Source: Amphiscolops sp. MND2022
Lineage: Eukaryota
NCBI GenBank assembly: GCA_964187785.1
Contig: OZ076409.1
Span: 66,528,001-66,592,000, forward strand
Length of the DNA: 64,000 bases
Reading direction: 5' to 3'
The notes under the pieces were generated by a model that did not search any database, was not told the origin of the DNA, and saw only the letters and a list, made by a program, of their open reading frames with translations. Position 1 is the stretch's first letter, and each line of letters starts with the position of its first letter. Shown piece after piece: positions 1,771 through 63,970 of this stretch. Position numbers and translations under genes: made by a program.

Positions 1771-2224
1771 ATGCCTTCTCATGAGCTAGCTGAAGAACTT
1801 GATCCTTCCAACTCAGACCATGATGCTGATGGAGAGCATGTAGATGTCATACCGACATCTCCAACACCTAATGAAAATGATGGTAGAGTGAGTGAGACTA
1901 GCCAACAGAATCCATTGGATGACCCACCCCCGCCTTATGTAGAGTTCGAAAGTCCTCGGAACTCTAATGAGAACTTGGATGACGATGCAGTTTCTGGGGA
2001 TGATATACCAGTGGACAACATCATAATTGAAGAAGACAGCGTGTCAAATGAAGAGACATTTGACGCTCAGCAACGAAACGAAACAATTTATGAAGATGAT
2101 TTTCCGGTCGAAGTTTTATATAAACTTGATGAAATGATCAACCGACCGCGATGGGTGATTCCTGTTCTTCCTGGCGGTGAACTTGAAACTCTACTTAAAG
2201 CTAGCATAAGATTGGCAAAGCAAG
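1771..2224 (+). CDS. USP9X: USP9X coding exon 1
   Basis: ATG...[26 protein letters not shown]...KQ; donor CAAG|GTAATT; upstream acceptor TTTTCTAG at 1751. Confidence 0.9.
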
Positions 2225-20200: not shown

Positions 20201-23200
20201 AAATGATTCTTAGGTTGCTACGCGTGTCGTCTTTCAATGGCAAAATGAACGCTCTGATCGAGATCAACAAAATTTTGCAATCATCCAGCAATTTCGACAC
20301 CCTATCATGTGCAGATGCAATTCCACCCGATAAACTTGCGGTAAGAGCTCCAATGTCTTGTCTCATTCTTCTCATGGACCTCGACTCAGGGTTCGGAAAG
20401 AAACAAAGTTTCATTAAATTTGATTATTTGGAGCATTTTAATGGACTTTTGTTCTTTGTTAGTCCAAAATTTGTCGAATAATAGTAAACTTCGGTTAAAT
20501 CGTATTCACATAATTCGGATCTTCGTTAAATTCGTATGTATCTAGGACCCCATTTCATGGAAACAAATGTATTATCATCCGGTTAATTTGTATTTCTCAT
20601 TCTTCGTATCGTTTTATTCGGTCCCTGGCGAAAGGAATAAGCGGATTCCACTGTATCTACTTTTTTCAGTCAAAAAATATAACAAGCCGGGACCGGCCAA
20701 GTCGGCGCCATATCCAAGGCTCAAAAATAGCAAAAGGACTTCCCAGTGTCAATTTACAGTACTCGAAAATCGAAAAAGCAAAAAATATGAACCGAGTGGC
20801 GTGCCTGGGCCCGCTAGCGCGAGCCCCTGGCGTGCTAAAAGGGGGACACTTCTGAAATTGTCAACATTTTTGTCGCAGTTGAAAGGGGGACCCTTTGGAG
20901 AAAAAACAAATTTTCGAAAAAAAGTCTCATAATGCCGAAAAACTGAAAGGGGGGACCCTTTGGGGTTTTCAACATCCATTCTGTCGCAAAACATCAAAAA
21001 ATTGAAGTGGGGAAAAATTTTGATTTTCGGGAAAAAAATCTCACAGTGCCGAAAAAAACTGAAAGGGGGGACCCGTATGGTAAGTTACGCGGAAAACAGG
21101 AAAAGCCTTTTTGGTTCAGTTCGGTAGACCAAATAGTGCAATTTGGTGCAATAATATTTTCTAGAACTTTCAAGAACTATTTTGATCAGTTCGTGTGGAT
21201 TGAAAAAAGCCACTATAATAGTCGCGTTTCACTTCATGAAGCGCCGACTAAAAACGACCGTGCGCATCGAAACTACAAGTTGTATATGCCCATGTTACAA
21301 AATCTTTTTTGGAAACTCGTCAAATCAATGAAGATGATAAATGATTTATAATAGGTAATGGGATGTTTTCATTAGAGGATGTTGCATAAAATTGGTTGTC
21401 TCCCCGATCAATTCAAAAATTTTGAATTCTGCCTTAGATTATCTGTGTTAGAAGATCTGAAGCAGTTGAACAAGCCTGGGAAGGTATGAGTCGGCGCCAC
21501 GCTTAAGGCTCAAAAAGCAAAAGTACTTCAAAGCGTGAATGACTTTTTTGAAAAAAACTCATCTCAGTGCTGAAACCCAAAGTGGCGACCCTTTGGTTTT
21601 TAAAGGGATTTTTGCTTTTATTCTCACCAGAAACCTCGAAACGCCTAAGCATTTTTTTCACCAGAAGCCATAGAACTGCAGCGAGAACCCTCATCTGAAA
21701 TATGAATTTTCCAAACAAAACGCACTGTGCCAAAAAACCAAAAAGCCTTTGGGCTAGAAAACGCTTTTTCTATCCAAAAATATCAAAAACCGAATGGGGG
21801 ACCCTTTTGGAAAATTTCAAAAAATCGCCACTTCCGAAAATTCTTTTACAATCCAAATATGTCTTGTCAAAATATGAATGCGTGGACGTTTTCAATCAAT
21901 TTGAAAATTTGTGGCTTTTTAAAATTTTCATGGTCACTCGGCCGGTTTTAAGGAAAAATGCCACAGAGTCACTTTAATCTCCAGAGGAAACGCATCTAAA
22001 TTTGTGCAAAGTGTTCTTTTCATTTATTCCATTTTTAACGTACCATACAAAACCGGACGAGACTAAAGGGTCCCCCCTTTGAATTTTTTTGGCACTGTGC
22101 GACTTTTTTTCGAATTTTTTTTGTCTCCAAAGTGTTCCCCTTCAAGTTTTTCGATATTTTGCAGCAAACTGAAGTTTCGAAAAGCCCAAAGGGTCTCCCC
22201 TTTTAAAGGTTTTCAGTGTCCCAGCACGCTATATCCCAACTTTTGACGTTATATCCGAAGCAAATTGCGTTCTTTTAAGTAGGAGGCCAAGGTTCGAAAA
22301 AGCGCTTCTATGTGGCCCAGCACGCTGTGGCCCAGCACCCAAACTATATTGCGAGCACAAAGGCACCCTTTGGGTGTTTCGACACTTTTTTGTGAGTTTC
22401 GCAAAAAAGTCAGCATTTTTTAAAAAACTACGCTTTTTGATCCTTGAGTATAGCGCCGACTTTAAACGTTCCCGTCTTGTTATTTCATGAAGCGTCGACT
22501 AAAAACATGCATTTGGTCCTCTTTGAAAAATGCGTTGAAAAAAGTTTTTCAAGATTTCTTACAAGCATGTTAAGTCATGATTACTTTGTTACAGATGGAA
22601 TGATTTGAACCAGTTCAGTCGGTTTTTGATGTTTTTTGAGAGCTTCCAGAAATTGTCTCTCGATCTGACATGAAAACCGTTCTGTCGCCGAGAGTCCATT
22701 AGCTAACCGTTTTGTGAAGCAATCTGTACCGGATTGCATAAAACAGTCTTTTCTCCTTAGTTACTGATTGAACCATGCAACACTTGTCATTTAGTTACTG
22801 CCTTGCTGATTTTCGGTCTGTTTTATTCACTGCGTTCCCACGGCCTTGACATGCTTTCATCTGCGTCCCCAAAACATGTTGAAAAATGGACATGATATTT
22901 GTTTTTTTTTTGTGGAGCATTTGGTTTTTTCACTTGAAATTCTCTTGAATTCTGGAAAGAAAAAAGTAGTGAATTTTTTTGAATGAAATTTACATAATGT
23001 AAACGTCATAGTCACGAACGGATATATGCACAACACGAAGAATTTATTCACTCTATTTGTATATAAATGAATATAAGTATGCGAAATGAAAAAGGACGAA
23101 AGTACGAGCTAATGAAAAATATTTTTTTTTGCATCGTACCAATGGATTAATGAAAATAGATTTTTTGCATCGTACTTTTAGGAAGATCATTATAAGGTCT

Positions 23201-26200
23201 CAACAAAAACAGAATCCTAGGTAACAAAAACTCTGAAAACAGTACAATTTTTGGAAGAACGATATCTTTTTAGCAGCATGATGAGAGGTAAAATTATGTT
23301 TGGTGATATTTAATGGCATCAAATAATATAACTTACATTGTTTTGTAATAAAACCATTAATTTTTGTATTCAAACAGTGTAATGATTCATTCTGAGCGTT
23401 GATTCAAACCGAATTTTTGCAGGACTCGGGGGCCTTTTCTATAGATCTTATCTGGGTGTCTTTTCTTCGGTTGAATTGTGAAGAATTTATCAAACTTACA
23501 GCGCCAAAGATATCCAAAACATCAAAAACCCAATTTTTCAAAAAGGTGATTTTTTCCGGAAACGTTTCGGTGCCGAAAAACCCAAAAGGAGATCCTCTAA
23601 ATTCGCAAAACGCTTTTTCAATGTCAAAAATTTTCAAGAAGTGAAGACGTTGCTCTTTGACCAAATGAAATTATTCCTCGAAAAGTCACACTGTGCCGAA
23701 AAAACCGTTGGTCTTTTCCAAAGGCACTGAGAGAGTTCTCATCAGTTCCACAAACCAAAGATGTCACTCTGAAGCTCGGAATAACCCGAAATTGTCATTT
23801 TTTAAACGATTTTGTCATAAAATAATGTCTTCGATAAGCATAGTACTGAAAATCTCGAAGGTGTGCTCTTTGCTCGCAAAACGATTACATAATTATTAAG
23901 AAAACTCCTATCAGTCCGAAATGACCTAAAAAATCAAAGAGGTCACCTTTAGGACTCGGAGAATGGTTCTCCTCAACTGAATATCTGAAGGAGAAACTAA
24001 AAAATTTCGAAAAATTGCATAGTGCCAAAAAACCTTGAAGGGCTATTTTCTCGCAAAAAAATTTATGTTTGCTAAAATTCGAACGGGAGCTTTGGCGAAA
24101 AGTACCAAAAACTTCTACCTCGGCAAGCACATGGAAGATTTGGCCTAATATGGGACTCGAACTCATACATTCCTGCTTCTCATGCTCCTGTCACCGGGCC
24201 TGGAAATGTGAGTTGACCGCTAGACCAAAAGGCCATATAAAATTGATAAATTAATTATAAAATTGGACGTAACAGGGACCCTAACGAAAAAAACTTGCCA
24301 CTGTAAGAGTCTTGCGCTTTTCTACCGAACAGCTCCGACCTAATGGCCTTCCAAAAATTGAATCCGAAAATTGTGAACCGATTGAAAAGTTTGTTGTGAC
24401 TCGGTCTTCTTCCAGGTCAGCCTCCGTCAAAACCAGCTGTTAGACCGGTAATGACACGTCACTCCGCTTCGCTCCTGCGTTCAGGGCACTATAAAAATTT
24501 AACCGTGACAATACGATTGCCTTCTCTGGACGCTATTTACTAACAAACCTTTTGGACATTATTTATTTCTTAGGACGTTTTTTACTCTCCCCTGTTTTTC
24601 AATAGGGTGTTTGTGGGGGCTATTTATCCATGAGATTCTGGAGAAGTGATTTCAAAAGTACTTGCTGCATTATTTTTATTCAAATGTACAAATGTAGAGG
24701 ATTCTCTTTTATTCAAGTAACAAAGCTTATTAGTCTCACAGATGGACTTCAAAAATTTGGATTTTGAAATCTACGTTAAGTTGATTGACTTCCGCAAAAA
24801 AATTGACTTCCGCAAATTTGTAGAAAGAGTTTTATATCCTAAAAATTTGTGGGGAAAAGGGCATATTTTTTCCTGGGAGATTTTTTGGGAAATTTAGAAA
24901 TATTACTGTGTCCCACATGTGGCCGATTTTGATGGAAGAATTTTTCACTATTTCATGTCATATTTTTATCACGTCTCGATGTACGAAATGGTACCCCGGA
25001 ATGGCCAGGAGCTTTCCAAGTTGGAACTCGAATCAACTGCCATATTAATTTGCTCCACGACAGCGTGAGTTTGCATCGCAATTTGATGTCGAACGTTTGT
25101 TACGGACAGAGAGACGGGGAAATGGCATTTTCTTTGATGAAGTTTCATAAGTCTCTAAAAACTTCTGTTTTGAAGAACCGACTCAAGGTAAACATAGAAT
25201 TCAGTTTCGCTTAGTGACGAAGTTCGAAATTCGTAGAAATTGGCGCAAACTTTGAAAATTGACATACTGCCATTCCTTTGCACGGTCGTCGTGTTTTTGG
25301 GGCAAACCGCTCAAGCGAATAGGAAAAATTGGGGGAAAATACACGTAATTATTCCAACCACTGGATGTAGAATGCGTTCTCATCATCACTTTAGGCCTGG
25401 TCAGAGTTTTGACACCGCTAGTTATCCTTTTTCCCGCTATTTCATTGGCCATTCAAAGGTGATGGATCCATCTGAAGCTATTTCATTTTGTCTCATTGGA
25501 TTAATGTGTATTGTAATAAGAAGGCATGTAAAAATCAAAAGAGGTGTTTTACAAGCTAAAACAATGTCATTGATTTGGCCTTCAATGCTCATTGATAACA
25601 ACATGTTACTTTGTTTTACAATATCAATGTTTTAGCTGAATGATTTTATGGGTCTATAGTAATCATAAAAATTTGATACTCACCAAAATTCTGACGCCGT
25701 ATATGGCGAAAATTACTAGAAAGTCTTTCATCATTCGTCAAGTCGACTAAAAATTTTCTCAAAGTCATAAACAGTTGTCAACTGAGTGATATATAGGTTT
25801 TCAAAAATCCTTTTTGGATGATGCTTTCAAGTTCTAAGGTCGTTTTAAGTTTTCTCCTGATCAGTTTGACACCCTTAGTTGAATAATACTGAAGGCGTGA
25901 ATAAGTTTCACACTAAACATCAAACACTTGCTGGCGGCATTCAAGTGCTGGTATTTAGTAATGGTATCATAAACTGATGACTAGAATGAGCAACTGACGC
26001 GTCATTGTCGCGATTTAGTGCTGTTTAATTTTTTTTTCGGTAGCCACTGCGATTTGAAATAGTTTAACCGTAGTCACTGAAGGATTAATTGTTCAATACA
26101 ATTCATTTTAATGAATTGCTGGAAGTTGTCATCAGAATCTGTGACAAATCCATTGAAATATCTGAAATTGAAGGTCTTTGTGAAGTCTATTTTACAATTT

Positions 26201-29200
26201 GTTGTTCTTGTAATTTTTTTCATGGGTTCTAACTCTTCAGTTCGTTCTAAAAGTTGAAGTTATCAAGGGGATCTAAACGAAAGTCGGCGTCCCTTAAAAT
26301 AGCAATTTTGCTTAGTAAAATGATCTTGAGATCGAAACACGTCTGCATTTGTTCGATTCCGTAATATCACCAATTCTTTTATATGAATGAGAACTATGGG
26401 GCTACGAGAACTTGGAGCAAATTGAAGTTTTTCACAGGAATTTTCTTCGACGCATTCTGAAGGTCAGGAAAAGTTCGCCCAGTGCTATGGTTTATGGAGT
26501 ACTCGGTAGGCATGAAATGAAAATTACTGTCTGGAAGCGAATGGTTAACTTTGGAAAAAAACTGATCAAATCAGATGAGTTATCATGTGTAATTCGCCTT
26601 TGGTTAGACAACTGTAACGTTGTCACACCATGGCAGTCAGGAATAAAATAATCCCCATAAATTGCGGAGTACCGATGACAGAAGAGTATGCATGTTTCGT
26701 GTCTGATAACCAGTTCAACAGTTTTTTTAAAAGAAAATGTGAAGATCTAGCTTTTCAATCATGGCAAGTGATGTTTCAAGTCAACCCACTATGTGAAAAT
26801 TACCACCTATATAAGCATCGACTAGAATTCGAGCGATATTTGAAAATAATTAGAGGTCCTGAAAGAGTGAAACTAACCACTTTTAGGTGTTCGTCTGCTG
26901 CTTTACCAACTGTTGAAATGGTGTTACGGAAATCCTTTATAGAAACTTGTCCCCTATGTGGGTCCTATTGTGTCCCGGACAAGTACCATCTGTTGTTGAA
27001 CTGTAGGTTTGTTAGCGCTAAACGTCAAGAGTTTTTGCCAATTTATTATTAATGGGGGAGGAAAATCATGATCTGTGTTGCGTTCTTTTTTTTTACAAAT
27101 TTTGCCAAATCTCCACGATCTCCAACTACCAGACTATTTTTATAGTTACTAAAATAGTCAAGTAGTTGTAGTTACTAGTTTTAACTAAAATAGTCAAGTA
27201 GTTTTAGTTACTAGTTTGTCATCTCCATCTTTCGGTTACTTGACCAGTTTAGTTACTTGACTAATTCATTTCCTATCAATCAGTAGGTTGTGGGTTCGAA
27301 TCTCGCCTCCGCCTGATTTTTTTTGACAAGGGGGAAAAAATCAAGAAGTTTAGCGGGCATCTTGTTGCTTAAACACCCTAATTTGATAAAGTATGACTAG
27401 CTGATGAGTACATCTAATGGAACTCTTCTGATGAATATCTCAAAACTTGTCCAGAACTGTTGCAACACTATTGATGAATATTTGTAAGCTGTGATTTGTA
27501 CGCCTTCGGGCAACAAAATTAATTAACTCTCTCTCTCTCTCTTAAATGGCGTTCAAGCCACTCTCGAAGGAGGTTCCAACTTTCGATGAAATTCAGTTTG
27601 CAATACAACTTCACTACCAATTGAAAAACTTGGTACAACTTTTTGTCTCTTCGTTTCAAATCACTTAGAATTCTTTTTGAAATCTGAGAAATGTTTCCGA
27701 ACATGTGAATGTTCACTCCCATATACGCCATTGTTTCTAGTCGGCGCCTTTTCCTTACAGGAAAGCCGACTATTGCAGTGACTAGGTTTTTTTCGTCAGA
27801 CAACAGAATGTATGCGTAGTGGACATTTTTTACTGAACTTCTAGACCGGAAAAGTTAGTCCAAAGGGTCCCATACTACATTTTTAACGTTAGATACAAAA
27901 CCGGACGAAACTATAGGGTCCCCCCTTTGAATTTTTTTCGGCACTGTGCGACTTTTTTCGAATTTTTTGTCTCCAAAGGGTCCCCCTTCAAGTTTTTCGA
28001 TATTTTGCAGCAAACTGTAGTTTCTAAAAGCCCAAATGGTCTCCCCTTTTAAGTTATGTCTCCAAAGGGTCCCCCTTCGATTTAAATATTTTGCAACAAT
28101 CTGGATTTTCAAGGAGCCTAAATGGTCCCCTTTTACAATTTCAAATACTTCGCGCACTTTGAGTCTTAGATATAGCGCCGACTTGAGACGTTCCCGTCTT
28201 GTTGAATTCCGCAACAGATAAGTAGGTGTCTCAAATAAATGGCGGTCAATAGTTTTAGGGCTTATAAAGTTCTGCTGATAAATTTCAGTAGGAACTGAAG
28301 AGTACAGTGGATCCCGGATATAATCAACGTCAGCGTAATAACTAGTGTTCCTCATAATCGAACGTTCCTTTATGAGCGTTGGAATAGGGAACTAATTTTG
28401 CAATCGAGCCCAAGATGCGCATTGACTATAAGCGGGTATTCCGTATAAGTGGGTTTCTTATATCCAGGAGCCACTGTAGCTCCTTTTTAATAGCTTTTTT
28501 AAATAGTCACAATAGCAAGCTTCTTAATACTTTGTTTAATTATGATGAGTTTTTTGTTTTCAGGCGTGGCTTTCAGAAAATGACGTTTTGAGCATAGTGC
28601 TTCGAGACAATCTTCACCAACCTCAGTACGTGGATAAGCTGGAGAAAATCATCAGATTTGCCATCAAGGAAAAGGCATTGTCTCTGAAAGACCTTGACGC
28701 TACCTGGAACGCCCAGGTGGGCAAGCATGAAGCTATTGTTAAAAATGTTCACGAACTTTTGGCCAAACTAGCTTGGGATTTCACTCCTGAGCAGTTGGAT
28801 CATTTGTTCACACGCTTCAAGGAGAGTTGGAATAACGCCAACAAAAAGCAACGTGAAAAGCTTTTGGCATTGATTCGTAGATTAGCCGAAGACGACAAGG
28901 AAGGCGAAATGGCACAGAAGGTCCTTTCTCTTCTCTGGACCTTAGCCAGAAGTGAAAATTGCCCGGCTGAAATTGTGGACTTGGCTCTATCAGCGCATAT
29001 AAAAATTTTAGATTGCAGTGTCGCTCAAAATCGTGAGGAGCAGAAGATAGCTTGGATTGAAACGTTTATAGATCAGTTGAGGAAACCAAACGATGACTGG
29101 GTTGTTTTGGCCCTTCGCATGATTCGTTCAATCTGTCGCCAATTTCCTGAGAACCTGTCCCAGCAGATGACGATTCAGCCGAGAATGGGAGCTTTGCATC

Positions 29201-32200
29201 TCATCTACAGAGATAAACTTATCCATAATATCCAGGAGAAATATGCACTGGTCACGTTGGTTGCCAACAGTCTCACTGATTACATGCAGAAAATGAAGTT
29301 GTACAGCAAGGAGAACCCCGAGTACAACCCCAACTGTGTCAAAGAGGGTTCACGGTTAGAAAAACGTCATCTAGGTTCTTTCATAGTTTCATTCAGGCTT
29401 TGGCTACATAACTAAGCAGAGTTTCAGAAGAAAAGACGGACTTTATAATCGGCTCATTTTATACGAAAACGTGCCCGACTATTACTGCGACTTTTTTCTC
29501 CAGACCACAGAGTTCACACTGAATCGTCCAGTTGCGACAGATTTTACGCCTTAGATCTAAAGCATACCAAAGGGTCCCCCTTTCAGTTTACCACATTTTT
29601 ATCTGATCTGAGATCGAATGGTCCCCCTTTGGGTATTTTTCCGGTACTTTTTTGAATTTTTTTATATCGACAAGGGTACCGACAAATCAGGTAGAGAAAA
29701 CCGTTTTTTGAACCTAAGGGATCGTCCGTGAATATTTTTTGGCACTGCGAAAATTCGATAAAAACAAAACACCTTTTAGCCCTAAATGGACCAGATAGTT
29801 TCTGCAAACTTCTAAACGCACCAATTGACCGCATGGTAGAAAAAACTCTTGAATAAGATTTTCAGACGATTTTACACATCATTGCACGCCTTTTCACGGA
29901 ATATTGACATGATGCCTCCGAAATTATGAAAATGGGGCCAAAAAATCAGAAAAAAAATTGAGCGCAGATTTTCCGTTTTTCCCGTTTTCGTTTGTGGCCA
30001 CTCTATCCTACTGGTATCAAAATATGGTCAAAGTGGACCTGGCATGTTTTCAAGGAGCCAGTGCCCCCAGCCCTGCAGTTCAAAAATTGATTTGAAAGCC
30101 CTGATACTCTTCATTCGAACGCGCTATAAATCGTTTGTCGGACTTGATTAGTTTAGTAATTGCAGTTTAAAGTTGAAGCACCAGATTTTTGAATGGATCC
30201 GAAATGTTGCTGGTCCATTTAGGGTTAATATATTAAACTTTAGCTATAAGAGAGACGCCGACTTTATGCGTTTTCGACTTGTTTATATTCACGGCAAAAA
30301 ATCAGGCGGCGTTACTTATCGAGCTTGAAATATCACTTTTTGAGGAGTTTAAAATAGTTTTTCTTAATTGTTTCCTTCAAGTCGTTTCAAATATAGAGCT
30401 TAATCAAATGATGTAGATTCAAGTGGACCAGTTTTACGCAATTTTGTGGTCGGAAAGTTTTTGGCTAACAATCAATTAATTGTCAAGAAAACAGTTCGCT
30501 CGATTGTGCGCATTTTTCTTGCTCATTTACACATTTGATGTTAGTCATTTGTACCTTGGAAATTCCAAGTTGGAATCAACCATTGGCGATATGAAATGGG
30601 AGTTTCCTTTTTTGGCTCTTAACATGAAATTTGGGGTGAATGTGGGTTTTGTGTTGCAGGTACACACATCTGCAACAAGTGGAGGAAAGACTGGACTTTT
30701 TGTGTTTTGTTTTAAAAGACGGACAACTGTGGCTTTGTCTGGCTCAAGCTGAGGACATCTGGGATTCACTGACTGAGAAATCTGTGTACAGAGAAGACAG
30801 ACAATGTTGTTTTCGGTGGTTCTCCAAACTTATGTCAGACGAGCCAGACTTGGACCCGGAGATCAGTGAAAACTTTTTTGCGTGTAAAATTTTGACTCTG
30901 GACACCAGTTTGCTTTCAGACGAAGGCATCGTTTGTTTTGATCACTTTTTTAAACTTGTCAACTGTCGGGCCAACAAGTTCAAGCAAACATCACGCAGTA
31001 AGTCGGGCTTCTTTTTACTAGACACGGAATTGATTGGGCTGAATTACTTGTGGAAAATAATTGTCAACTGCAGTGATGAGCTCGCTTCCAAAGCAATTCA
31101 TCTTCTCATTGAAATTTTTACCAATCTATCAGTGCAACTGAAATCGCAAGCTATCAAAATTTACAACCAGTTCATTGAGAAGTGCATGAGTTACCTGAAC
31201 GAATCCTTTTCCAAAGTGTGCAAAATTTCTGTCTCGGATAAAGACTTTCTCAACCTTGTCACAGAAGAAAACAATCGAATGCAAAGAGTTTTGACAGTGT
31301 TGAAAGAGTTCATTAGAAAAACAGATTCGGCGTTTCTCTCAGAAAGAAAATGTAGCCCACTGATAGAAGCTTGTTGCGGCAAATACTTGGTGCTAATTGT
31401 TCGTATCGTCAATACAAGCCGACAGATCGATGATTTTTCCATCGCTACCCATACACATGCAACTGTAGCCCATTTGCGCAAACTGATTCTGCAAAAGTTC
31501 AACTTCACAACGTCCAATGCAATCTGCGAAATTGGTTTCAACAACGCAATGATAGATTCCTGTTTTGACACGTTGACCTTGAAAGAGTATAAATTGGCCC
31601 ATAAGAGTCTGATTCTAGCAAAGGTCATGTCATGTTCACCTGGTGTGTCAATGGGAGCAGCTCCGGCTCTGCCGTCTAGTGATGAAGAAGATGACTTGGA
31701 TCAGCCAGCGTATACCAGAGGAGGACAAAACCAGGCTTTACATTCTTCAGGTGCCGGTCCGGTGGATACAAGCGACGCTGAGTGTCTCCTACCTTCGTCA
31801 ATTTTCAGCCAACAGAACGAACACCTTTGCACCCTTCTTAGAATATGTGATTGGGCCGCCCAACATCATCTCACTGCTCTTTGGAATACAATAAGGGATG
31901 AGAAAAAATTTTGATCGTTTCAAAAAGCTGACAATCTGAGTTATAAATGAACTACCAAGGACTGTTAGTTTTGAACAATATAAAATTACTTCGTTATGCA
32001 GTCAGTTTTTATTAATTGGCGTTTTCGAAGAAAAAGGTCGACTCCTACAATTGCTAGTTTTTTTCGTCAGTTCAACGCAATTGGTCACAATTTTTGTGCA
32101 CTGGGCACTTTTACCATAAGCACTTAGTACTTGATTTTGAACGCATCCAAAGCCTCTAACATGAAATACAAACCCATTCAAAAGCAGAAGCCCTCCCCCT

Positions 32201-35200
32201 TTTTCACTTTTTTCGGCACTGAGACTTCCCTCCTTTTTCGGCTTTGTGAGACTTTTCCGAAAATTTTTTAATGTCTCCAAAGGCTCCGTCTTTCAATTTT
32301 TTGATATTTCGCCAAATTGGATTTTCAAAAAGCCCAAAGCCCCTTGCAATTTTTGGAACTGAGATTTTTCCAAATGATTTTTCATCTTCGGATTTTTCCA
32401 AAATTAGGTTTTCTCAGCACGCTGTATCCGAATTTTTTTCAAGATCGGCGTTTTTTTCATGCGGGTTTTTCCTATGTTTTTATCGAAACCCCCTCTCGGT
32501 TTTTCTAGAAACGAAACGTTTCGCTCAATTTTCCCTTTTTTGAGAGGTTTTCGGTTGAGCAAGATGGGTTTTTGCTGTTTCCAGTTGGGGAAAAAGTGGT
32601 TTTTGAGTCATACGTATCGTTTCGGGTATTTTTTGGCGCTGTAAAATTGATGAAAAGTGTCCTTTTGCGTATTTAAAAAACTTTACCTTTTTGAACCTTG
32701 GAACGGCTGACTTGGGCCGTTCCCCTTGCTTGTTCATTTCCTGTTACCACCAAAAGCAATTAATTATATGTTATTTATAAATTGTTACATTGAGAACCGA
32801 TGCGATCTAGATCATTGGTACCTTTTCCAGCCAAAAAATCATTGTATCAACATATAGAATCTATAAAACGTTATCAAATCTTTTCCAATCAAGATTACTT
32901 TGTATTAGTTCATAGAATCAAAAATCAAAGTTGATAAGAGACGCTATGGAAATAGGACGCAAGGTTGTCTGAGTTTGAATATATTTAATTTTTAGTCGGT
33001 GCTATGTAGCTTTTTTCGACACTGTGCGATTGAGAACTTTTTCAAAATAAGATTTCTTGACGCTTTCAAGTACGTGTGCTTTTTGAGCCTATTTATGCCG
33101 TGGCTGGCTTGTTGACTAAAATTTATTCAAATACAGTCAATAATTTTTCATCCCTATGAATCTACCGTACCAGGCATCTAATCTCGCTTCTGCCCTGTGA
33201 CTCCCACGTGGCAGACAGAGTGAAGGCAGTGTGTGCTGATCACGCCACTGGCGAGGAGGTGTCACTCATGCCCACAGTCGAGTCTCTCTTCTTCTCCAAT
33301 TCCCCCAACCAGGTGCTATACTATTTGGAAGTGCTCCACGTCCTCTTGTTCCCCGCAGTCGACCCCCTCGGTGAAGAATCCAGATTGTTCCAAGTGAGTT
33401 TTCGTCATTTTGACATTCCGTGCTTGACAATGAACCCTCGCGAATGTTTGTACAACATTTCATTTTGCCTCATTTTGTAGATTCAGCACAGAGTGGGGTT
33501 TTTAACACCTCTCCGAGGTTTTTAACAGTTAACTAAAAACAAAAACTGCTGAAACTTAAAAAGTTGTTTTGAACAATTTAATCGCATTTTTCATCAGAAC
33601 GAAGCATCCTCATTATGAAAGCCAATTTCGTCGGTTTTTCTTGGCCGAGTGGATTACGAACGTCACTGTACATATCCCAGCGAAGAAAATGCTCTTTCAA
33701 TACCAGCAGATGATTGAGGCAAGTCAAATAAGACACATAAGTCGCCAATATCTTTAGTGATTTGGCCAGTCAATACCTGGGCTTTCACCCCAATTGACCT
33801 GGGCGTTTTTTTTTAAATTTTCAAAAAAATTGACAAAGAATTTTCAATCATAAATATCTCCAACTACGCGGACCTGAGGAACGAACTATAGCGCGTTTGA
33901 AAGCTTTGATATTGGGCTTTCATTTTGGTCAGCTGAGCCCCTGTCGCCGCCCGCCCCTTCCTTCAGAAATTTAGTTTCTTTCCGGTACCGCCGCTTTGCG
34001 GCAGTTCCGCACTTCGTGCGGCCCGCTGGGCGGCGGCTTGTGGTAACAACAGAATATTATAGGGGTATGTTGCACCAGGACTTGTGGCAGGGTATGTGGT
34101 TGGTTTTTTCTATTGATCAAAGACTTTTGAGAAAACTGGATTTCGTCAAAAACTGAATTTTGAGAAAATTTAACTATTTTTTGTTCAAAAAAAAAACATT
34201 TTTCTCAGTTTTGGAGACCTTTTTCTAATGCTTGTGCCATTCAAATCAATCTAGGTACCAATTACTTGTTGAAAAAAACTGTGCTAGAGAAAATGGGCTA
34301 CTGGCAAAAGGAATCAGAATTTGGAAAAAAGGTATGCTGCTTTAAAGCACCACTAGGTTCATTGGGGTTAACAAAATCTTCAACTTTGCAATTTACTTTG
34401 CTGAATGATTCTTTATAATCATCCTTTCTCGATCCCAAATATGTAATGAATTGAGAAATCAGTTATTCATTCGAAACAAGATCCTCCGCGTTTTTTATTT
34501 CCTTGGGAGACGTATTTCGGATGCAATAAATGGGCCAGAAACCATATAGGTGGTACTGAACGCGAATAGCGCTTTTCTGCAATTTCTAGTCAACACCATC
34601 AGCTATCGAGCTGTAATCAGCCTCGAGCACATCTAATGCTGCGGCAACAGGGGCGAGGCACTTTAATCCATCCTCAACATTTTTGTAGATTGCCAAATTT
34701 TTCAAAGTATCAGTTGCGCCAAGTAACCTTGATGAGTTTCCGTTTTCAATTTTTGTCACTCATCCTTCTGCTTGTAACCATGACATTGGCTGGTGACAAT
34801 TTTGAAATAGGGGGCGCAACTTCGTTTACTCGACTTACCAATTGTGATGATACCAAATCTTTTGCAAGAAGGTTGACCTGATGAGCAGCACATCCATATG
34901 CAATAAAGTTCCTTTTTAGTCGGCGCATTTTAGTAGAAAATGTGCCCGACTATTACAGTGGGTAGTTTTTTTTAGACACGAAAGGTCCACTTTTTTGTTC
35001 ATTTGTTCAACAACCTCAAACCTCAACAACTTCAAACCTCAACAACTCCAACCTCAGAAGCGCGTCCAAAACGAAAAGAAAAAACAAAACAGACGTCCAC
35101 AACCTCGAAATCACACTAAGGATCCCCCCACTTTTTTTCGGAACTATGCGACTTTTTGAAACTTTTTGGATTGAAATTTTTTCACCAAATGGTCCCCCCT

Positions 35201-38200
35201 TCAATTTTTAGGAGTCGGAAAAAATTTTCGACTACTTATGCAATCGTGCTGTTTTTTTTTCTTTTTGTTTTTTTCTCCCGACCTTTTCATGAAAATTTCA
35301 AATTTCTCAAAAACTGTCCATACGATTTTCACAAAATTTTGCACAGTCATTCTACACCCAAAGGGGCCCCTGCGTGTGCAAAGGCATCAAAATCGTATGG
35401 CCTGGATGTGAGAAACATAGCCAAAATTAGCCCAAAAATGGCCAAAAAACAGCCATTTTTCGACTTTTTTCGATTTTCTCAAAAACTGTCCATACGATTC
35501 GAACGAAATTTTCTACAGTTAGTCTACACCATATTAGAGTCCTATATGTGCAATGGCATCAAAATCGTATGGCTGGGATGTGAGAAACATAGCCAAAATT
35601 AGCCCAAAAATGGCCAAAAAACAGCCATTTTTCGACTTTTTTCGATTTTCTCAAAAACTGTCCATACGATTCGAACGAAATTTTCTACAGTCATTCTACA
35701 CCATATTATGGTCCTTTATGTGCAATTTCATTAAATTCGTATGGCTGAGATGTGAGAAACACAGCCAACTTTAGCCCAAAAATGGCCAAAAAAACAGTCA
35801 TTTTTCGATTTTTTCGATTTTCTCACAAACTGTTCATACGATTCGAACGAACGCGAGTCAGAAGGAAAAAGACTTAAGCCGACTCCTTTACCGCATATGC
35901 GGCTCTGGTTTTTGATGTTTTGCAACACAATGGATGTCAAAAAATCGCAAAGGGTCCCCCCTTTTACATTTTTCGGCACTGTGACACTGTTCAAAAATCT
36001 CATTGAGAAAAATTATTTTGGGAAATTTTTTCATGTCTCCTAAGGGTCCGCCCTTCAATTTTTTTAAATTTTTTTGCAACCAGCTGGAGTTTCACAAAGC
36101 CCGAAGGGTCCCCCTTTTAAATTTTGAGCCTTAGATATGGCGCCGACTTTGGCCGTTCTCGGCTTGTTTCTTCTCATTTTGACCATGTTCTCAGCATTGT
36201 CTGTTATAATTGCAGACACTTCAACACCAAAATCTTGTTTCATTTTGTCCATTTCATCTTCAGCAATGTCCGCCAAAATTTCACTAGTATGAGGAACCGA
36301 ACTAGCATCAATTGTCGAAATCAGATAAACATTTTATCAGATAAAGCAATTATTGACTCGTTCGAAATGTTGCTCCAAACATCCATGCAGATAGAAACTC
36401 GTTGACCATTAACGTTTTCCGCACATTTTTGTCCGCAAGTCGCTTCCGTGTGGGTGGCTTATATCCTGGGTTTAGTGCCTGACAATTCTTTAAACTCTCT
36501 GGACTCTACTGCTCGGAACGTCAAACTATTGGCAAAAAATTCCCACTTTCAGATCAAATTTATCTTGATCAGCTTTGCTTGTGGAAACAGTGAAATTTGT
36601 GATTCCGGGATGTTTTGGAGCTCTAGGGCTTTGCTCCCAATCTGTGTCATGATTTCCAAAGTGCTGGCGCATTTGTTTGGCGTTTCCAACCATCACTTTA
36701 TTGCACGTAATACATTCTGCTCTGTTTTCCCCTAGGTCTTGTCTTCCGTTAAAAAATTCCCAAATGGGGGTCTCGGGGTCGACCGTCACTCATTTCTACC
36801 TGAAAAAAAAACTTTTGAATTACCTGAAAAATTTTTGAATTGCGTTAAAAATATGTTAAAAACTAATGTTAATTAACGTTAAAAACATATGTTAAAAACA
36901 TGCGTGTTTTTAGCGTGCCCACCCTGATTCAGCAATCTGTTGCTTCACGTTTCCTCATGTTTTGCTCTGCCAGGGGTACTCGAGCGTAAATTAAGTGTAT
37001 TTCTTGGTTCTCCAAGATGAACGGTACCTAATTTGTGGTATTTCCCAGAGTTTCAGGTTCATATTTTGAAGAAATAGTAACAACAAAAATTGAGATGCTA
37101 TAACCAAGAGATGTGACAGCGAGAGCGATAGCGAAGTAAAATTCTGAAATTTAAATTAATATCTTGAAAATCGGTTTTTTTAATTAGCGATAGCGTTAGC
37201 GAACTCATTTTGTTGTAGCGATAGCGATGAAATCAAGCCATTAGCGATGTTAGCGATGAAGTGGTTAGCGATCACACCTCTGGCTATAACTATACCTATC
37301 TATCATGTTTCACTCGAGGCTGATTTATTTGAGGTTTTCTTCTCAAAAATTCTAAAGGGGGCTCAAGCTGGAGTGTTATTTATTCAAATAACAAAACCTG
37401 TATCCTCAGATTTGGATATTTTCATTCAAACTTATCCTTTTTACATTTTTTTTAGATTTCAAAAATTGTAAATGCTTTGAATCTACTTCGAGTTTATCCC
37501 AAAAAATGTAAGAATTGTATACTATTTGGAAATTCGTTGCATTTGAAGAAATTTTGTTGCACTCCGAAGGGTCTGATTTTCACATGTAGATATATGCAGA
37601 CGAATTGTAATAATGCCAATCAAACCACAGCATAATCCGGGTTTACCGATGGCCTAGGTTTGGCCTTAATGATGTTATAGTCTAAGGACGTTACAACCGA
37701 AGAACTTTATGCACTCTTAATAGAGCGCGGTGGAACACATATTACATTTATAAGCGGCTTGACTTAATAACCGGTGACGTTATCACCGGCTTACATTGTA
37801 AAAAAACTGTAAATTTTGAAATTTTTCATCTTTGTGCAGAAACATGAAGATTTAATTTTATAATTTAGGATCTCTTGCTTATTGAGTGCTTGAACAAAAG
37901 TCATTTTGACTGGTTCTTCCAGTCTCGTATGCCCACAAATCACAAGGTCTCAAGAAACCAGACGAATGAATCATTCATCGGAGATCATCTCTCCCTTTAA
38001 TTTTTTAATCTGTTTCAGATGCATTTCATAAAAGCCAGAGGAGTTGATGTCATTCTCGCCATGTTGACAAAAAACAACTTTCTATCCAATGCTGACATTT
38101 ATACTAAACGGTTAGTTGGTTGACCTTCTCCTGGAGCAAAAGTGAAGTGGTTTTCAGAATCGTTTCTTAACTTCTTCCTGAGCTGATCTGATTTACTTCC

Positions 38201-41200
38201 TTTCATTCAACTTTCGCCACCTCTTTAAGTGAAACTGTCAAGACCAAACGCGTTGCGAGAGGCGAAATTTCGTAATGAAGATCATTGGTATGGATACATT
38301 TTTTGCTTGAACAAAGTACTTTTTGCAGAAGTGCATACACTGTGGTGGTGAAAATGTCGAAGCTTCTCTATTGTTCGATCGGATTCGCGATTCTGCTCCA
38401 CTTGAAAAACTCACCTGATGCCCTGACATCTACTGCTTCGGCAACCTTTTCTGATGCAGATGGTGCTAAATCCTCGGCTGCTGCTGCCGCCCAAATCAAG
38501 TTCGAAGGCCTTGAGGTCTGGGGTTATCAAAAGTTGATTCTTCAGAAATGTTCTATTTTCCCTGTCAATTATTGTATTTTTCAAAAACCAGGTCTTCCAT
38601 GTTACCAAAGTCAGCTTGACAGTATCACGAATTTGAAGAAATTAAAATTTTTTCATTGGAACATTGTTTTCGAGCTTTCAAAGCTTATGATACCGGAGTT
38701 GATGTTTGAAAATCAGGTGTCTGAAAAACATAATAAAACTTTGATTTTCATTTTGGAAGGGTTGCGAAATATCGTTAAAAAATTGTGATATAAATTTGAT
38801 AATGCCTGCTGCTGAAGGTGGGAATGCGTTCAATCCCCAACTGCTTGGACAACATAATTTTGCGACAAGTGGCGTCTGTGTTGGCCTGCCACATGTACTC
38901 AAAATACTCATTATCGGAGACTGAGCAAATTATCCCTGACGAAAGCACCATCAAGTCGCTCTTCAAGTTGGCATGCTCACCCACTGGTTCTGTTACTTTC
39001 GACAGCTCCCATCATTTCTCAAGTCTGGGCGGCAGTGTTTCTGGTTGCGTGCCCCACAGCGAGGAAAACTCAGGACTCCCGGCTAACAAAGTGAACGCGT
39101 TGAAGGAACCCAGTCATGAAGATATAATGCTCTCATCGGAAGCTCTGGAGGTGTTAACCATCTGCTTCACTTTGAACCCATCACAGTTGGAAACGTTTTT
39201 GCAGAAGGAGCAGCAGTGGAATTTTTTGGTGCAAGAGATTCTAATCAAGTGTCCCGATAGGAGTCTGAGAGTGACGTGTTTGGATCAGTTGCTGTTAATA
39301 GCCACGCGGGCCAATGTGGCATCGCTACCACGTGTGGTCAACTTTTTTGTCTCAATTCTGCTGAAACAGATGACTTATGCTGCTAATAATGCCGACAGAA
39401 GCGACTCGTTCTTCAGGTCAGTTAATTAAAGCCTAGTTTCGAAAACAGATGAAACCAGACTGTTCTTGACTGTTTTTAGGAGTCGGAAAAAATTTTCGAC
39501 TACTTATGCAATCGTGCTGTTTTTTTTTCTCCCGACCTTTTCATGAAAATTTCAAATTTCTCGAAAACTGTCCATACGATTTTCACGAAATTTTGCACAG
39601 TCATTCTACACCCAAAGGGGCCCCTGCGTGTGCAAAGGCATCAAAATCGTATGGCTGGGATGTGAGAAACATAGCCAAAATTAGCCCAAAAATGGCCAAA
39701 AAACAGCCATTTTTCGACTTTTTTCGATTTTCTCTAAAACTGTCCATACGATTCGAACGAAATTTTCTACAGTTATTCTACACCATCTTAGAGTCCTATA
39801 TGTGCAATGGCATCAAAATCGTATGGCTGGGATGTGAGAAACATAGCCAAAATTAGCCCAAAAATGGCCAAAAAACAGCCATTTTTCGACTTTTTTCGAT
39901 TTTCTCAAAAACTGTCCATACGATTCGAACGAAATTTTCTACAGATATTCTACACCATATTAGAGTCCTATATGTGCAATGGCATCAAAATCGTATGACT
40001 GGGATGTGAGAAACATAGCCAAAATTAGCCCAAAAATGGTCAAAAAAGGGCCATTTTTCGACTTCAGAAGGAAAAAGACCTAAGCCGACTCCTTTACCGC
40101 ACATGCGGCTCTGGTTTGATTCCATGTTTTCTCGTTTTTTTATCAGTCATATTCCGAGTTCTATGCAAAAACATCGTAAAATCTCAGGTATGAGCGCCCA
40201 CGGTGTATAAATCTCAATAAATTTTGCGCAGTAGAGAAAATGCTTCCAGTATATTACGGAGGCGTCATTACCGCGTAATTTTCTTGTTTGTTACAAAATT
40301 TTGGTTTGAGACAGCGCTGAAGAAAAAATAGGATGCGGGTTTACCAACCGTTTTCAATGTCTCATAGAATGTCGATGAGCTACAGTTATAATGTACCGAA
40401 GTTTGTCCAAAAATTTCCAAAGTCTAGTGCGCATGTTTTCCACAATAAGCCGTAGTGGTATGAAAAGTACCCTCGATTTTGTTGAAAGATAGATCAGGAA
40501 GTTTAGAAAAGTTGATGTGGATCTGGAACCGATGTTATGAACGTTGACTTGATTTAACTGCTTTAGATTGGTGTGCAAGTTGTTGGAATACGCGCGATTC
40601 CTCAATATATCGATTGAGAACTTGTCGCAATACCTTTCGCAAGAGATCACCTTCATAGACGAGACTAGAAACAACTGGCTGTCTGCAGTGGGGGTCGAGA
40701 AGGAAATGACGTTACCACATGATTTTTTTCTGTGTGGCAGACTTAATTTATGTCGCGAGCTGGTCTCCTTCACCAACGACGAGGTCGACAAGATCGTCCC
40801 GGGGTGCTCTTCGTTGATACAGGTTAATTTGTTCGTTCACTAATTAACCTTAAGCTGTTTATAAAAGTTAAATTGTAATGAAATTCTTACCTTTCAATTC
40901 AAAACATTGAATGAATTGAAATTTAGGTCGATAGAATTGAAATCAGGGGTGAGCAAATGAATATTATAATATATTGGACCATGTGTTCAATTTCACGACC
41001 CCCCCCGCCCAGGTACACCTTGTTGGGAGTTTCCACTCCCCACCCCCAACACGAAACCACATTTTGTTCTTGAATAAAAATATGAGAATATTATATGAAT
41101 GTATATACTTAGAGGATTGTCTCCACAACTGTTCGGACACTTCAGGCAAAAAAAATACCATAATTTTTTGGTATTATTGTCCAAAATAGCAGAAATTCAC

Positions 41201-44200
41201 GTTTGGAACAAGCTAAAATCGTATAAAAAAGGCCCCTCTTTCAGCGCAAATTTTGTCCGTGATTAAATCTAATGAGCAACTTTTTACTGACAATGTCAAT
41301 GTAATGGATAGGATTATCTCGACATCAATTATTTTATTGGACCAAAATTTCAACGCAAACGATGTCAACATAATGGTATTTGAACCTTGAACCTTGTCTT
41401 ATCCCCCCCTGTGGCCGCTTGGAGGGGAGGATTGAACATATGGTCCAATATATTGACTTTAAGAGACTCTATTGAAATCGTCATTTTATTTTTCACCATT
41501 TTGAATGAATAATTTTCATTCAAGATAAAGTGAAAGTAAATGAAAATGGGATCTTCTCTGTTAATTCCAAAAACTTATTTGAATGAATTTTTATACGCTT
41601 CTAAATATAGTAACTACAATCATACATTATTACTTGTCAACCTTAAATTGAATGTCAAAATATATTGGCCTGAAACACAAATACATTGGAACAAAATATA
41701 TACATGTAATTTAAGCTGAGAAAATATACTTTGCTTTTTTGAGAAAGTGTTTAAAGAAAGTGTACGATTGGGGCCTTTTCCGTTAATTTATTTAATTTTC
41801 ACCCTCTTGTAACACCATGTAAAATTGAATTTGTACAGAAAAGCGCCACCACGTCAGCAACAATTGCATTAGCGTGGCTTTCGCTCGCTCGCTTGCCTTG
41901 CATTTAAAATTGAATGCTAGCGCAGGCTTGCAAAATGACGATTACGTCACGCACTTTCTCACATTATTCCAAACACAGCTAGCTGCTGTTGAGCGAACGA
42001 TGTGTACTAGCTATTCAACTGTCTCTGTATAATTTATGCTTTTCGTTACAAACTGAATTTATCAAACTTGAAAATTAGGCGAAGTTATAAGTAAAGGTAC
42101 AAGTATATATTTCGAGTGATACCTAAAAATAATGGGCATTTTCACAAAATGGTGTGTTTGAAATTATATACATTGTAATGATTTGTCACCTCCGCCATGC
42201 AAGTAATAAAGAAAGACTTGATGTAATTAAGATCATACTTCTAGAGATCATTTCTAGAGTCTGCATCTTCGCCTCTTTTGGCAAAATTGATGACTTTCAT
42301 CAGCCCGATGATGACGGATGGATGTCTGGTCAGAGCATGAAGATGTCATGAGGGGAAACCTTCGATGACGTTGATGATTGCTTCGTGCTCCTTGGGGTAC
42401 AGAGACCAGGCAGCTATCTGAGGGCTATTTTAATTCCTTGAAAATATGTTCATACAAGTAAACAAATGAATTCTTTCACTCTGTTAATCAATTGATCTCT
42501 CCTATAAAAATCCCCAATCAAAAACGATGATATTTCATACATGTATTTAAAAGTGTTTCACTTTGTCTACCCCTTTTGTGCCGTATTTAAAGGATAACAC
42601 GGTCCCAAAATTGAATCACTATAGTAGTTATAACGATTAGATGTATGTAATTGCTTTCAGGAGTTATTCTTCGATTTCTTGTTCCCGGCCACCAAGGCGC
42701 TGCATCAGAACGAGAAAACCCTGTCTACATCAGCACAGTCTCAGCCTCTATTCGACAAGTGTAGAAATATCAAGCCGATATGCGACCAGTTGTTAACGCA
42801 AAACGCAGCGTTCCAGCTAATCATTGCCCTGTCAGAACGCAGTTTCGACAACTTCAGATTTCTCGTGCAGATTTTGATGGACTCCTTTTACAGCCGCAAT
42901 GTGACCACCATCACTGAATGGGAATTCCAGCCCCCGATCGGCTGCAAAGCCCCGGGTGGTTTCGTGGGTCTCAAAAATGCAGGTGCTACTTGTTACATGA
43001 ATTCAGTTATTCAACAGCTTTTCATGGTGCCCGAAATCCGGGAAGGCATTCTGTCAATTCCTGGAATCGCCGACGAGTACCGGGAAAATGACTCGGCCAT
43101 CGACTTCAGCTCCAGTTCAGTCGCGGGAAGCAGAGCAAATGACTCATCGAGCTCAGGATTCAGCTCAGCGGCGAGGTCTCTTGAACACGACGTGGAAAAC
43201 CTGTCCTTATCTGCAGTATCAATATCATCTCAGCTGGCTATATCCTCAAATTCTCAGGCAGGCATTAGGAAATATTGAACGAAAATCTAAATATTGAACG
43301 CCTAAATTTAGCGGTAGCAAATAAGGGACACGCAAATCAAATTTAGCGGCCCAAACTTAGCTTAGCACCATTCGTTTTTAAGATGGCTTTTCTCGACAAT
43401 TACAATAACAGTTGAACACTCAGCGATATATTAACAATCAGCATTTGATTCAATAGAGTTTTAATATTGGCTGTATGGCTGACCTTCCGTGGCGCTGTGC
43501 GCCCCCTTGTTCGGGCTTCATCAAAACCAGTCGCTTCGCTCCTGCATTTATGGCACCATAGCAAGTTCATTATACTGGTCTATTATCTCTGTGGTATTTT
43601 GTCCTTTGGTTTGGTATTTGTCCCCTGGTATTTTCTGGCATTCTGGCGTAAAAATGTGAAGTCAATATATAATGCCAAAACTAATGCCTGGCTGAGGTTA
43701 GGACGCGCGGGTCCAATATCACATAGAGGTGCTCAAGTATTTGCAAGTAATTTTCGGCTACCTGACTGCCAGCCAGCTGCAGTACTACTCGCCGGAGGGT
43801 TTCTGGAAGCACTTCCGGTTCGCAGGAGAACCTGTCAACCTCAGAGAACAACAGGACGCCCTCGAGTTCCTCAACAGCATCGTGGACAGGGATGTTAAAA
43901 TTGCCATGAATATGTATTATAGATTTACTATAGGACACATATACTTTTCTTGTATAAATCGTATGCTCACAGGAGGAAAACATTTTCCGAATTTTGTAGA
44001 TTTTTCACAGGGTTGGCTGATTATAATCATTTCAATCCACTATTTCAATCGTGATTCATTCAATTTGGAGGTGGATAAGTTATTTGATCATTTTCTTAAA
44101 TCAACATTTTCTTACTTCCGTTCCGAGCACTGGGCAATTGAAATGCGTATTCATCACTTGGTTCATTTGGAAAATTAATACCAATTGCTAGTTGAAAAAC

Positions 44201-62900: not shown

Positions 62901-63970
62901 AACACTACCTGAAAACATTTCAACAGAGCGGGGTTTCCAAAAACGACGTGTACATGGACTACATAAACAAAAAATTAGTGGCTGCCCAGGATCAACAATC
63001 GCAAAAGGTTTGAAAGACGTGGTTCGCTTCCTGGAGTGGAAAAGAACCGAACGCCCGGGGTGTTTTACTGAAATCGAACACAGTCTAATGGAGGAGCAAA
63101 AACGTAACCTGAGTCGATTGGTCTACCTTAGCTCGAACTGTTACTCATACGACAGAAGTCTTATAGCAAAGTACTCTGAAATTCTGTGGCAGGAGTCGAT
63201 AAACAATACGTTGTCGCTAGAGGGAAAAGCGAACATCCCAAAGGTGTCGTGCGAGCCCTTACCGATTCCACCGGACTTCTCACGACTAGATGAAGTGCTG
63301 TATATGAGTTTATTTTATGAAAACAATACAATGTACCATTTTCTTTGGCAACGAAGTCTGGTAGAATCGCCCCTATGCCGATGCATGGAAGATATTCAGA
63401 CTGTAGAACACATTTTGTGTGATTGTCCAATGGTAGAAGAAGATGTGAAGCGTCAACTAGATGAATTCAACTGGAAGAACCTGGGTTACGGGCGTGCAGA
63501 CATTACAGTAGACCTTTTGAACTGTTCGAGGAATCCAGAATTAGCAACAATTTGCAAGAAGATTATAAGAAACCCGAAGCTCAAATTATGGCAGCAGAAA
63601 TAAGAGACAAACAGAAGTAGCTGGTTATCATAAAGACGAATGGAATTTGCAAAAAGAACAAGCGCTCCGAAGAAAGCGCATCAGAGAAATTATAGAGAGG
63701 TCAAAACAAAGCCAGAGTACCTCTATGGACACTAAAATGCCCACAGTAGGCAGTAAAAGAAATCATCATCATCATTATATCCGAACTTCTGAAGCGTTTT
63801 CCCAGCACGGAAGGCTTCCTTTGGGTGAAACTTTTTTGTGTGTTCTAACCCCGTTGTATTTTTTCGGCACTGTGAGATTAAGAATTTTAAAAAAATCCTC
63901 GACGTTTTGAAGTACTTTTGCTCCTTTCGAGCCTTGAGCGGGCGACGACTTTGCCGTTCCCTGCTTGTTT
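59986..63970 (+). mobile_element. HINE family A copy interrupted by another family A copy (about 60039-60538) and by a LINE; a further copy begins near 63970
   Basis: Family termini at 59986, 60039, 60538 and 63970. Confidence 0.7.
61062..63775 (+). mobile_element. 5'-truncated LINE (I/Jockey-group-like RT), nearly intact ORF2 with one frameshift near 63010
   Basis: KEGKTSY..AGAYRPIS, DFEKVYD, GLPQGSVISP, KFADNG, C-terminal CRC..TVEHILCDC; (CAT)n tail at 63761-75; 12-bp TSD TATATCCGAACT (61050-61, 63776-87). Confidence 0.9.

Follow-up and report, generated by a model that had tools for sequence, protein, structure and literature searches.

The 64,000-nucleotide (nt) stretch analysed here (the window: Amphiscolops sp. 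MND2022, assembly GCA_964187785.1, contig OZ076409.1, positions 66,528,001 to 66,592,000) holds a gene for a USP9X/FAF ubiquitin hydrolase, and our subject is its intron 8, which appears to begin with GG. The exon model was built by mapping P0035, a full-length unnamed Logan protein, to the window, which gave 27 exons, and all 26 junctions were scored against P0035. The modelled protein is 92.8% identical to P0035 over 2773 columns, and the exons contain Pfam matches to ARM_UBP24_USP9X-Y, UCH_UBL1 and UCH. Its closest named relatives are acoel proteins, from Symsagittifera roscoffensis (55%) and Convolutriloba macropyga (54%), and in a 16-row tree it joins these two at 100/100, so the organism is probably an acoel.

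The 26 introns comprise 22 with GT-AG borders, one with GC-AG (intron 14) and three with GG-AG (introns 8, 15 and 26). The GT donors have an odd profile of their own: 8 of the 22 carry T at +3 (GTTAG in five), which may indicate altered U1 or U6 pairing. Coordinates are collected in Table 1, where a caret marks a splice site, as it does in the text.

Table 1. The USP9X/FAF gene, its non-GT introns and their associated features, in window positions.
Feature	Position	Strand	Details
USP9X/FAF ubiquitin hydrolase gene	1771..59871	+	27 coding exons; 2781 amino acids; model without stop or frameshift
Exon 8	30660..31895	+	last bases ATA AG; read-through frame RDEKKF, then stop at 31912-31914
Intron 8	31896..33173	+	GG-AG, phase 2, 1278 nt; from homology to relatives
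Intron 8 left arm	31893..31914	+	spans the donor; 31893-31903 is 9/11 to the Ac/Ds 5' repeat
Decayed dispersed-repeat pieces nested in intron 8	~32005-32064, 32197-32737, 33011-33090		families D3, D7, D10, D13, D17
Intron 8 right arm	33137..33156	+	33146-33156 equals TTTCATCCCTA, the Ac/Ds 3' repeat (11/11); also a pyrimidine tract; distance to intron end 17 nt
Exon 9	33174..33393	+	first bases G CAT CTA; the next intron is GT-AG and shared with relatives
Intron 14	43258..43701	+	GC-AG; 15-nt arms at 43254-43268 and 43681-43695
Intron 15	43890..45632	+	GG-AG, CAG^GGATGT; right arm CATCTCTG ends at 45621, then 8 nt and TAG
Intron 15 candidate target duplication	43879-43886 / 45622-45629	+	5/8 match
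Intron 26	58484..59559	+	GG-AG, CAG^GGATGA; 23-nt arms at 58484-58506 and 59525-59547

The intron 8 junction

The borders of intron 8 read ATA AG^GGATGAG at 31895/31896 and CCGTACCAG^G CAT at 33173/33174. A preliminary description, made from the letters of the window, had proposed exactly this GG-AG intron; its coordinates and bases are right, its numbering agrees with the 27-exon model, and the two complementary words it named are where it put them (TCATCCCT at 33148-33155 and AGGGATGA at 31894-31901). Removal of 31896-33173 gives a peptide that is identical to P0035 and one residue (WTTIR) off the unspliced open reading frame (ORF) P0001, and the join aligns without a gap at the junction with both named acoel proteins. 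The USP9X segment with which it had compared the join, GARVLMKLMPPD, is found in stickleback P0004.

Alternative junctions, i.e., frame-keeping G..AG and AT..AC choices, were scored. GG-AG at 31896-33173 scores 655, whereas the best GT/AG choice (31847-33214) scores 434 and deletes 30 residues, the number given in the preliminary description, and the best GC/AG choice (31876-33225) scores 500 and deletes 24. A canonical GT or GC donor was rejected on these grounds, with 24-35 residues lost in the best four choices of each kind. Between the end of exon 8 (31895) and the read-through stop there is neither a GT nor a GC, and no G..AG register other than 31896-33173 leaves the protein co-linear with its relatives. 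Because AGG stands at both ends of the intron, the mRNA is the same for four registers, with donors at 31894-31897, which reverse-transcription PCR therefore cannot separate; a fifth register yields the same protein. Only one of the four has an AG end.

Splicing could in principle use a nearby site instead, e.g., GA-AG from 31902 (two residues longer), AT-AC at 31891-33165 (one residue longer) or a slid register such as AG..CC. All of these keep the frame, the first two score 643 and 639 against 655, and slid registers yield the same mRNA. However, the residues that GA-AG and AT-AC add are found in no relative, the AT donor ATAAGG is unlike the U12 consensus ATATCC, and in introns 15 and 26, as here, AG^GGATG..AG is the only one of the best registers to end in AG, so we regard this alternative as very improbable. 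A U12-type intron was also considered and rejected, since the donors GGATGAGA, GGATGTTA and GGATGAGC do not fit the U12 donor consensus RTATCCTT.

The GG itself could be an assembly error, or the introns could be insertions in a dead gene copy. The read-through ORF of exon 8 (P0032, ending ...RDEKKF), which needs G at +2, is present on two contigs in ENA, which may both derive from one sample. One of these contigs encodes P0034 and P0118, each one residue off the window and located in two other exons; P0176, from another contig, matches the window exactly. GG thus occurs on two contigs of which one differs elsewhere in the gene, so it is not the slip of a single assembly path, and it is seen three times within the gene. 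The model stays open over 2781 amino acids, at 92.8% identity to P0035 throughout, which speaks against a dead copy. Error or decay is the least probable of the explanations we weighed, and a very remote one.

We consider the GG-AG junction at 31896-33173 very probably real, as judged from the single co-linear register and from the GG on a second, haplotype-like contig, both of which support the reading in the preliminary description. By the same homology comparison, removal of the GG introns is needed for a full-length conserved protein. In all three the exon ends in AG, the intron starts GGA and the acceptor is AG. Intron 8 has three T in -15..-4 of its acceptor (GT introns have 3-10, median 7), and the four non-GT introns have 3, 3, 4 and 6 against that median. 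The acceptor had been described as lacking a pyrimidine tract; a T-rich tract is indeed absent, but pyrimidines make up 11/12 of 33144-33155, so that the complementary arm forms such a tract itself, ending 18 nt before the intron end.

Complementary ends and probable recent gain

Complementarity was scored between positions -4..+26 and the last 45 nt in all 26 introns, using window sizes that were picked after seeing examples. Seven introns reach p<0.05 against shuffles, compared with an expectation of about 1.3: introns 8 (0.007), 14 (<0.001), 15 (0.040) and 26 (<0.001) and the GT introns 12, 20 and 25, i.e., 4/4 non-GT introns versus 3/22 GT introns (Fisher p=0.002). The arms of intron 8 were matched by 7/1000 shuffles and by 1.3% of random intron-interior 45-mers. 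The 8-nt pairing of the preliminary description is present, but the complementary stretch is longer than it claimed, about 20 nt with a bulge. In intron 14 the arms are 14/15 complementary and, although their repeat sequence is unlike that of the GG introns, it likewise starts with CAG at exon -3. The six arms of the three GG introns align on A-R-R-G-A-T-G.

Fifteen of the 26 introns, 11 of them GT introns, were folded. The predicted probability that the donor pairs with the 3' end is 0.80, 0.89, 1.0 and 0.88 in introns 8, 14, 15 and 26, 0.65-0.72 in introns 12 and 20, and at most 0.28 in the other nine; it is about 0 in 7/11 GT introns. In intron 8 the stem closes both the minimum-free-energy and the centroid folds.

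Two GT-AG introns are worth recording in this connection. Introns 20 (51233-51631) and 12 (39417-40566) have complementary ends (p 0.003 and 0.014) and are missing from the ORF of at least one relative, and intron 20 has no T-rich acceptor. Intron 11 (38516-38817, GT-AG) shares TAATGCCTG(G)CTG near its 3' end with intron 14 (43254-43701, GC-AG), both introns are absent from a close relative, and the donor region of intron 11 resembles a decayed complement (p 0.054); folded with its flanks, intron 11 showed no excess structure (z -0.13). Introns 11 and 14 possibly derive from another family of elements, in which a GC donor became GT.

The contrast in predicted pairing between the non-GT introns and most folded GT introns raises the possibility that the stem is functional. 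The 3' arm would pair with exon -3 to intron +8 or more, stand in for U1 in cis and draw the weak GG donor close to the branch region, and splicing would still depend on it today. The arms have been kept while interiors and duplications decayed, and by eye some mismatches in the arms of introns 8 and 15 are G-U pairs. The three mismatches of intron 26, however, are A-C, A-A and C-C, none of them a wobble pair. A donor must be reached by U1, U5 and U6, and a helix over -3..+8 would mask it from all three and would have to open. In the copepod Eurytemora affinis, moreover, GG donors vary after +3 and the author saw no special helper sequence (PMC5714493). We hold a stem with a present-day role to be possible but unlikely; it would be compatible with a transposon origin of the introns.

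Whether these introns are recent was judged from ENA proteins called on unspliced DNA, so that intron absence in relatives is read at the protein level. A 92%-identical relative has, on a single contig of 208,122 nt, unspliced ORFs that cross the positions of introns 7, 8 (P0001), 11, 12 (P0086), 14, 15 (P0036) and 26 (P0171), and the same relative's ORFs break at intron positions 9, 13 and 25. ORFs that cluster with Convolutriloba and Symsagittifera also cross positions 7, 8, 14 and 15. The continuous ORFs are thus P0001, P0002 and P0003 for intron 8, P0036, P0038 and P0078 for intron 15, and P0171 for intron 26. Introns 8, 14 and 15 are absent from both the near relative and the outgroups, so gain is the simpler reading; for intron 26 the absence concerns the near relative only. 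On this protein-level comparison, introns 8, 14, 15 and 26 were probably gained recently. Decay of an ancestral GT donor (AG^GT..) was ruled out, since the relatives have no intron at the position.

Gain in this gene may extend beyond the non-GT introns. Of 19 intron positions that could be assessed, at least 11 lie within unspliced ORFs from other acoel-like sequences, and for seven of these the ORF is that of the 92%-identical relative. The count covers introns other than 1-4 and 22-24, and it treats introns 10 and 19 as shared because the ends of P0049 and P0043 there show intron-like read-through despite an automatic call of crossing. Such numbers suggest that this lineage gained introns, canonical ones among them, in a burst. 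The C-terminus of the relative's ORF P0036 (model residue ~1852) falls within the window's exon 16 and may mark an intron private to the relative. A search of metagenomes from the Joint Genome Institute (JGI) for the relatives' DNA gave 132 pattern hits by protein, of which 0 were confirmed, and 0 matches by the window's common repeat.

Origin of the GG introns

The preliminary description dealt with intron 8 alone and had overlooked the two further GG-AG introns, the GC-AG intron, the recent gain and the resemblance of the arms to the ends of the maize transposon Ac/Ds. Ac/Ds has 11-bp ends, given as C/TAGGGATGAAA and TTTCATCCCTA in PMC3260210, and makes an 8-bp target duplication. The right arm of intron 8 contains the only 11/11 match to the Ac/Ds 3' end among the ~128,000 11-mers of the window's two strands. 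The 5' repeat is matched at 9/11 by the donors of 3/3 GG introns and at no more than 7 by the other 23. For left and right ends together, the matches are 9/11 and 11/11 in intron 8 and 9/11 and 8/11 in intron 15. All three GG donors are AG^GGATG, and ATG at +3..+5, present in 3/3 GG donors and 0/22 GT donors (14/22 GT donors have A at +4), is therefore not explained by a host donor preference.

These features can be joined into a mechanism, each step of which, i.e., insertion, drift and splicing by the major spliceosome, we infer. An element with the ends YAGGGATG...CATCCCTR would have inserted, with an 8-bp duplication, just 5' of a host NAG. Its first three bases would have become the exon end and GGATG the donor, a sequence that agrees with the donor consensus at -2, -1, +1, +3 and +5 and departs from it in the G at +2. 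The right repeat, being the complement of a purine-rich left repeat, would provide a pyrimidine tract and may replace the missing T-rich tract. The acceptor would be the host NAG behind the duplication, 8+3 = 11 nt beyond the element, and excision from YAG^GG to that NAG would therefore restore the protein to exactly its former length. Intron 15 has precisely this length-neutral geometry (11 nt), together with its 5/8 remnant of a duplication. Later drift would have altered the spacers (17, 11 and ~9 nt in introns 8, 15 and 26), let other repeats insert inside the introns and, in intron 8, changed the -3 base to A at the silent third position of an Ile codon. The worm's major spliceosome would have to tolerate G at +2, as reported for the copepod. 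Intron 8 fits an older insertion, given its 17-nt spacer, its -3 A and its nested decayed repeats.

Several observations weigh against such an origin. To begin with, the intron 8 junction rests on homology and not on spliced reads, and gain was read from protein ORFs rather than from the relatives' DNA. The link between complementarity and recent gain is not significant among the assessable introns (6/11 vs 1/8, p=0.08), and the complementarity of intron 15 is borderline (p=0.04). The right arm of intron 26 matches the Ac/Ds repeat at 6/11 at best (its left end at 9/11), having a 23-nt arm of its own. Candidate 8-bp duplications match at 5/8 (intron 15), 2/8 (intron 8) and 3/8 (intron 26), where 5/8 has a background of 2.5% per unrelated pair, or ~0.07 for the best of three, and the 11-nt spacer is seen in 1/3 GG introns. 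The end regions of introns 8, 15 and 26 (150 nt 5', 200 nt 3') have no mutual blastn match, their matches being to nested repeat families or short, so no multi-copy family is recognisable. Within the 64-kb window there is no free copy with both ends, and transposase families match 0/62 of its non-exon ORFs.

Some of these observations would be expected if the introns had been gained by another route (e.g., DNA break repair) under a relaxed donor, with AG^GGATG and the complementary tract selected later or present by chance. The interiors lack family similarity, the window lacks free copies and the duplications are weak; exon-end AG and +3 A are also the rule in copepod GG and GA donors, and the gained introns 5, 7, 16 and 18 have no stem. 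Such a route nevertheless leaves unexplained the T at +4 in 3/3 GG donors, the 11-23 nt arms and an exact Ac/Ds end at the expected place, and we consider it improbable. A PIF/Harbinger element, suggested by the TAA/TAT flanks of intron 8, was dropped: introns 15 and 26 have no such flanks, and the arms include the AG.

On balance, the pattern of donors and arms makes a hAT transposon a likely source of the GG introns. The fuller reading, in which the GG-AG intron 8, which is constitutive and was gained recently, derives from a non-autonomous Ac-like hAT element that landed in an exon, and introns 15 and 26 arose likewise, is in our view probable too. That the pairing in intron 8 compensates for a weak acceptor, as the preliminary description hinted, is possible; a transposon scar explains the arm without giving it a function today. 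Doubtful, by comparison, is an extension in which Ac-like hAT miniature inverted-repeat transposable elements (MITEs) colonised exons genome-wide in this lineage, about a tenth of introns are GG-AG and are cut within the terminal repeat, and the 3' repeat, still paired with the donor, does the work of U1 at a site to which U1 has little affinity, a transposon end having turned into a splicing guide that the intron itself supplies. In animals, hAT elements with TAGGGATG-type ends occur; a search for these gave nothing usable.

The window contains other mobile sequences. An abundant dispersed repeat with a conserved 3' end (families D2 and D9), spread over 7102-60544, fills most long introns, introns 8 and 15 included. 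About 1 kb 3' of the gene lies a reverse transcriptase ORF (Pfam RVT_1) of long interspersed nuclear element (LINE) type (60875-63603, + strand), which continues in a second frame, and intron 2 holds a broken LINE (10584-12369, - strand) whose endonuclease and reverse transcriptase pieces lie in different frames. Long inverted ends occur at 9212-9884 (169-nt perfect arms), 55251-56562 (67-nt arms) and 54438-54633 (a 196-nt palindrome), and none of these three elements has Ac-type ends. Tandem units of 172 nt, up to 98% identical, stand in introns 9 and 12 (35268-35911 and 39522-39993).

Comparison with known systems

Introners have been described in many lineages and GG donors in a copepod; we found neither reported for acoels. 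Our literature search, which took in open texts rather than subscription journals and most supplements, returned no report of non-canonical introns in acoels or of a hAT/Ac-type end serving as a GG donor, and the word "introner" was absent from the acoel papers searched. If our reading holds, the sequence source of GG donors becomes visible: an Ac-type repeat is AG^GGATG forwards and a pyrimidine tract backwards, and would be nearly an intron on landing. Close relatives with and without the introns would make the insertion step, the empty site and changes in U1, U6 or U2AF testable in an animal. There is also a practical consequence, namely that gene models limited to GT/GC donors will break conserved genes in this genome, as at 3/26 introns here.

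The nearest precedent is Eurytemora affinis (Robertson 2017, PMC5714493), in which 36/297 introns (~12%) have constitutive GA or GG donors (31 GA, 5 GG) with joins confirmed by RNA-seq. Its non-GY introns were recently gained, and their origin and recognition were left open (PMC5714493); for scale, GG donors make up ~0.014% of human introns (figure quoted in PMC5714493). In both animals, which are aquatic, non-GY donors occur in gained introns and have AG at the exon end and A at +3, here in 3/26 introns. Here, however, all are GG and indeed GGATG, with complementary 3' arms, whereas in the copepod GA dominates, the GG donors given in the portion of the source available vary after +3, and no terminal repeat or transposon origin is described there. 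The copepod joins were confirmed by RNA-seq, whereas ours are read from homology.

Maize Ds1 reportedly acts as an intron in the allele Adh1-Fm335. Splicing of Ds is imprecise and uses GT donors inside the element end. The GG introns resemble Ac/Ds in carrying a terminal inverted repeat of the C/TAGGGATGAAA type; they differ from Ds in that the GG donor lies within the repeat itself, splicing restores the protein exactly and the host is an animal, with no transposase found in the window.

Introners (Gozashti et al. 2022, PMC9860276; 2025, PMC12130899; review PMC11282704) are described, in the portions of these sources available, as recently gained, with terminal inverted repeats and many similar copies. 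The donors that those portions of PMC9860276 and PMC12130899 give are GT, GC, GA and AT, not GG; the main texts of both papers do not contain "acoel", nor does that of PMC12130899 contain "hAT", supplementary tables lying outside this search. The GG introns share with introners a recent gain, inverted ends and an aquatic host. On the proposed mechanism they would also resemble them in length neutrality and in drawing one splice site from the element and the other from the flanking exon, a geometry that fits as it stands in intron 15 but not in introns 8 and 26. Unlike introners, they were not found in many sequence-similar copies: in this one gene they share only their first 8-11 nt, not the full-length similarity of introners. 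The GG introns may therefore work as introners do but, within this gene, do not form a multi-copy family.

Two further systems combine inverted ends with unusual borders, as far as the available portions of the sources go. Fritillaria borealis has species-specific MITE-derived introns with AG-AC and AG-AT borders (PMC11282704), and in Euglena CAG...CTG ends pair, the CAG lying 3 nt into the intron and the CTG 5-6 nt from its 3' end, and element plus spacer are cut out without GT-AG (PMC12501133, PMC13326754). Unlike the Euglena introns, the GG introns leave their YAG in the exon (-3..-1), have G at +1 and use an AG acceptor, so they are not nonconventional introns in the euglenid sense. With Fritillaria and the euglenids they nevertheless share species-specific gain, inverted ends and non-GT borders.

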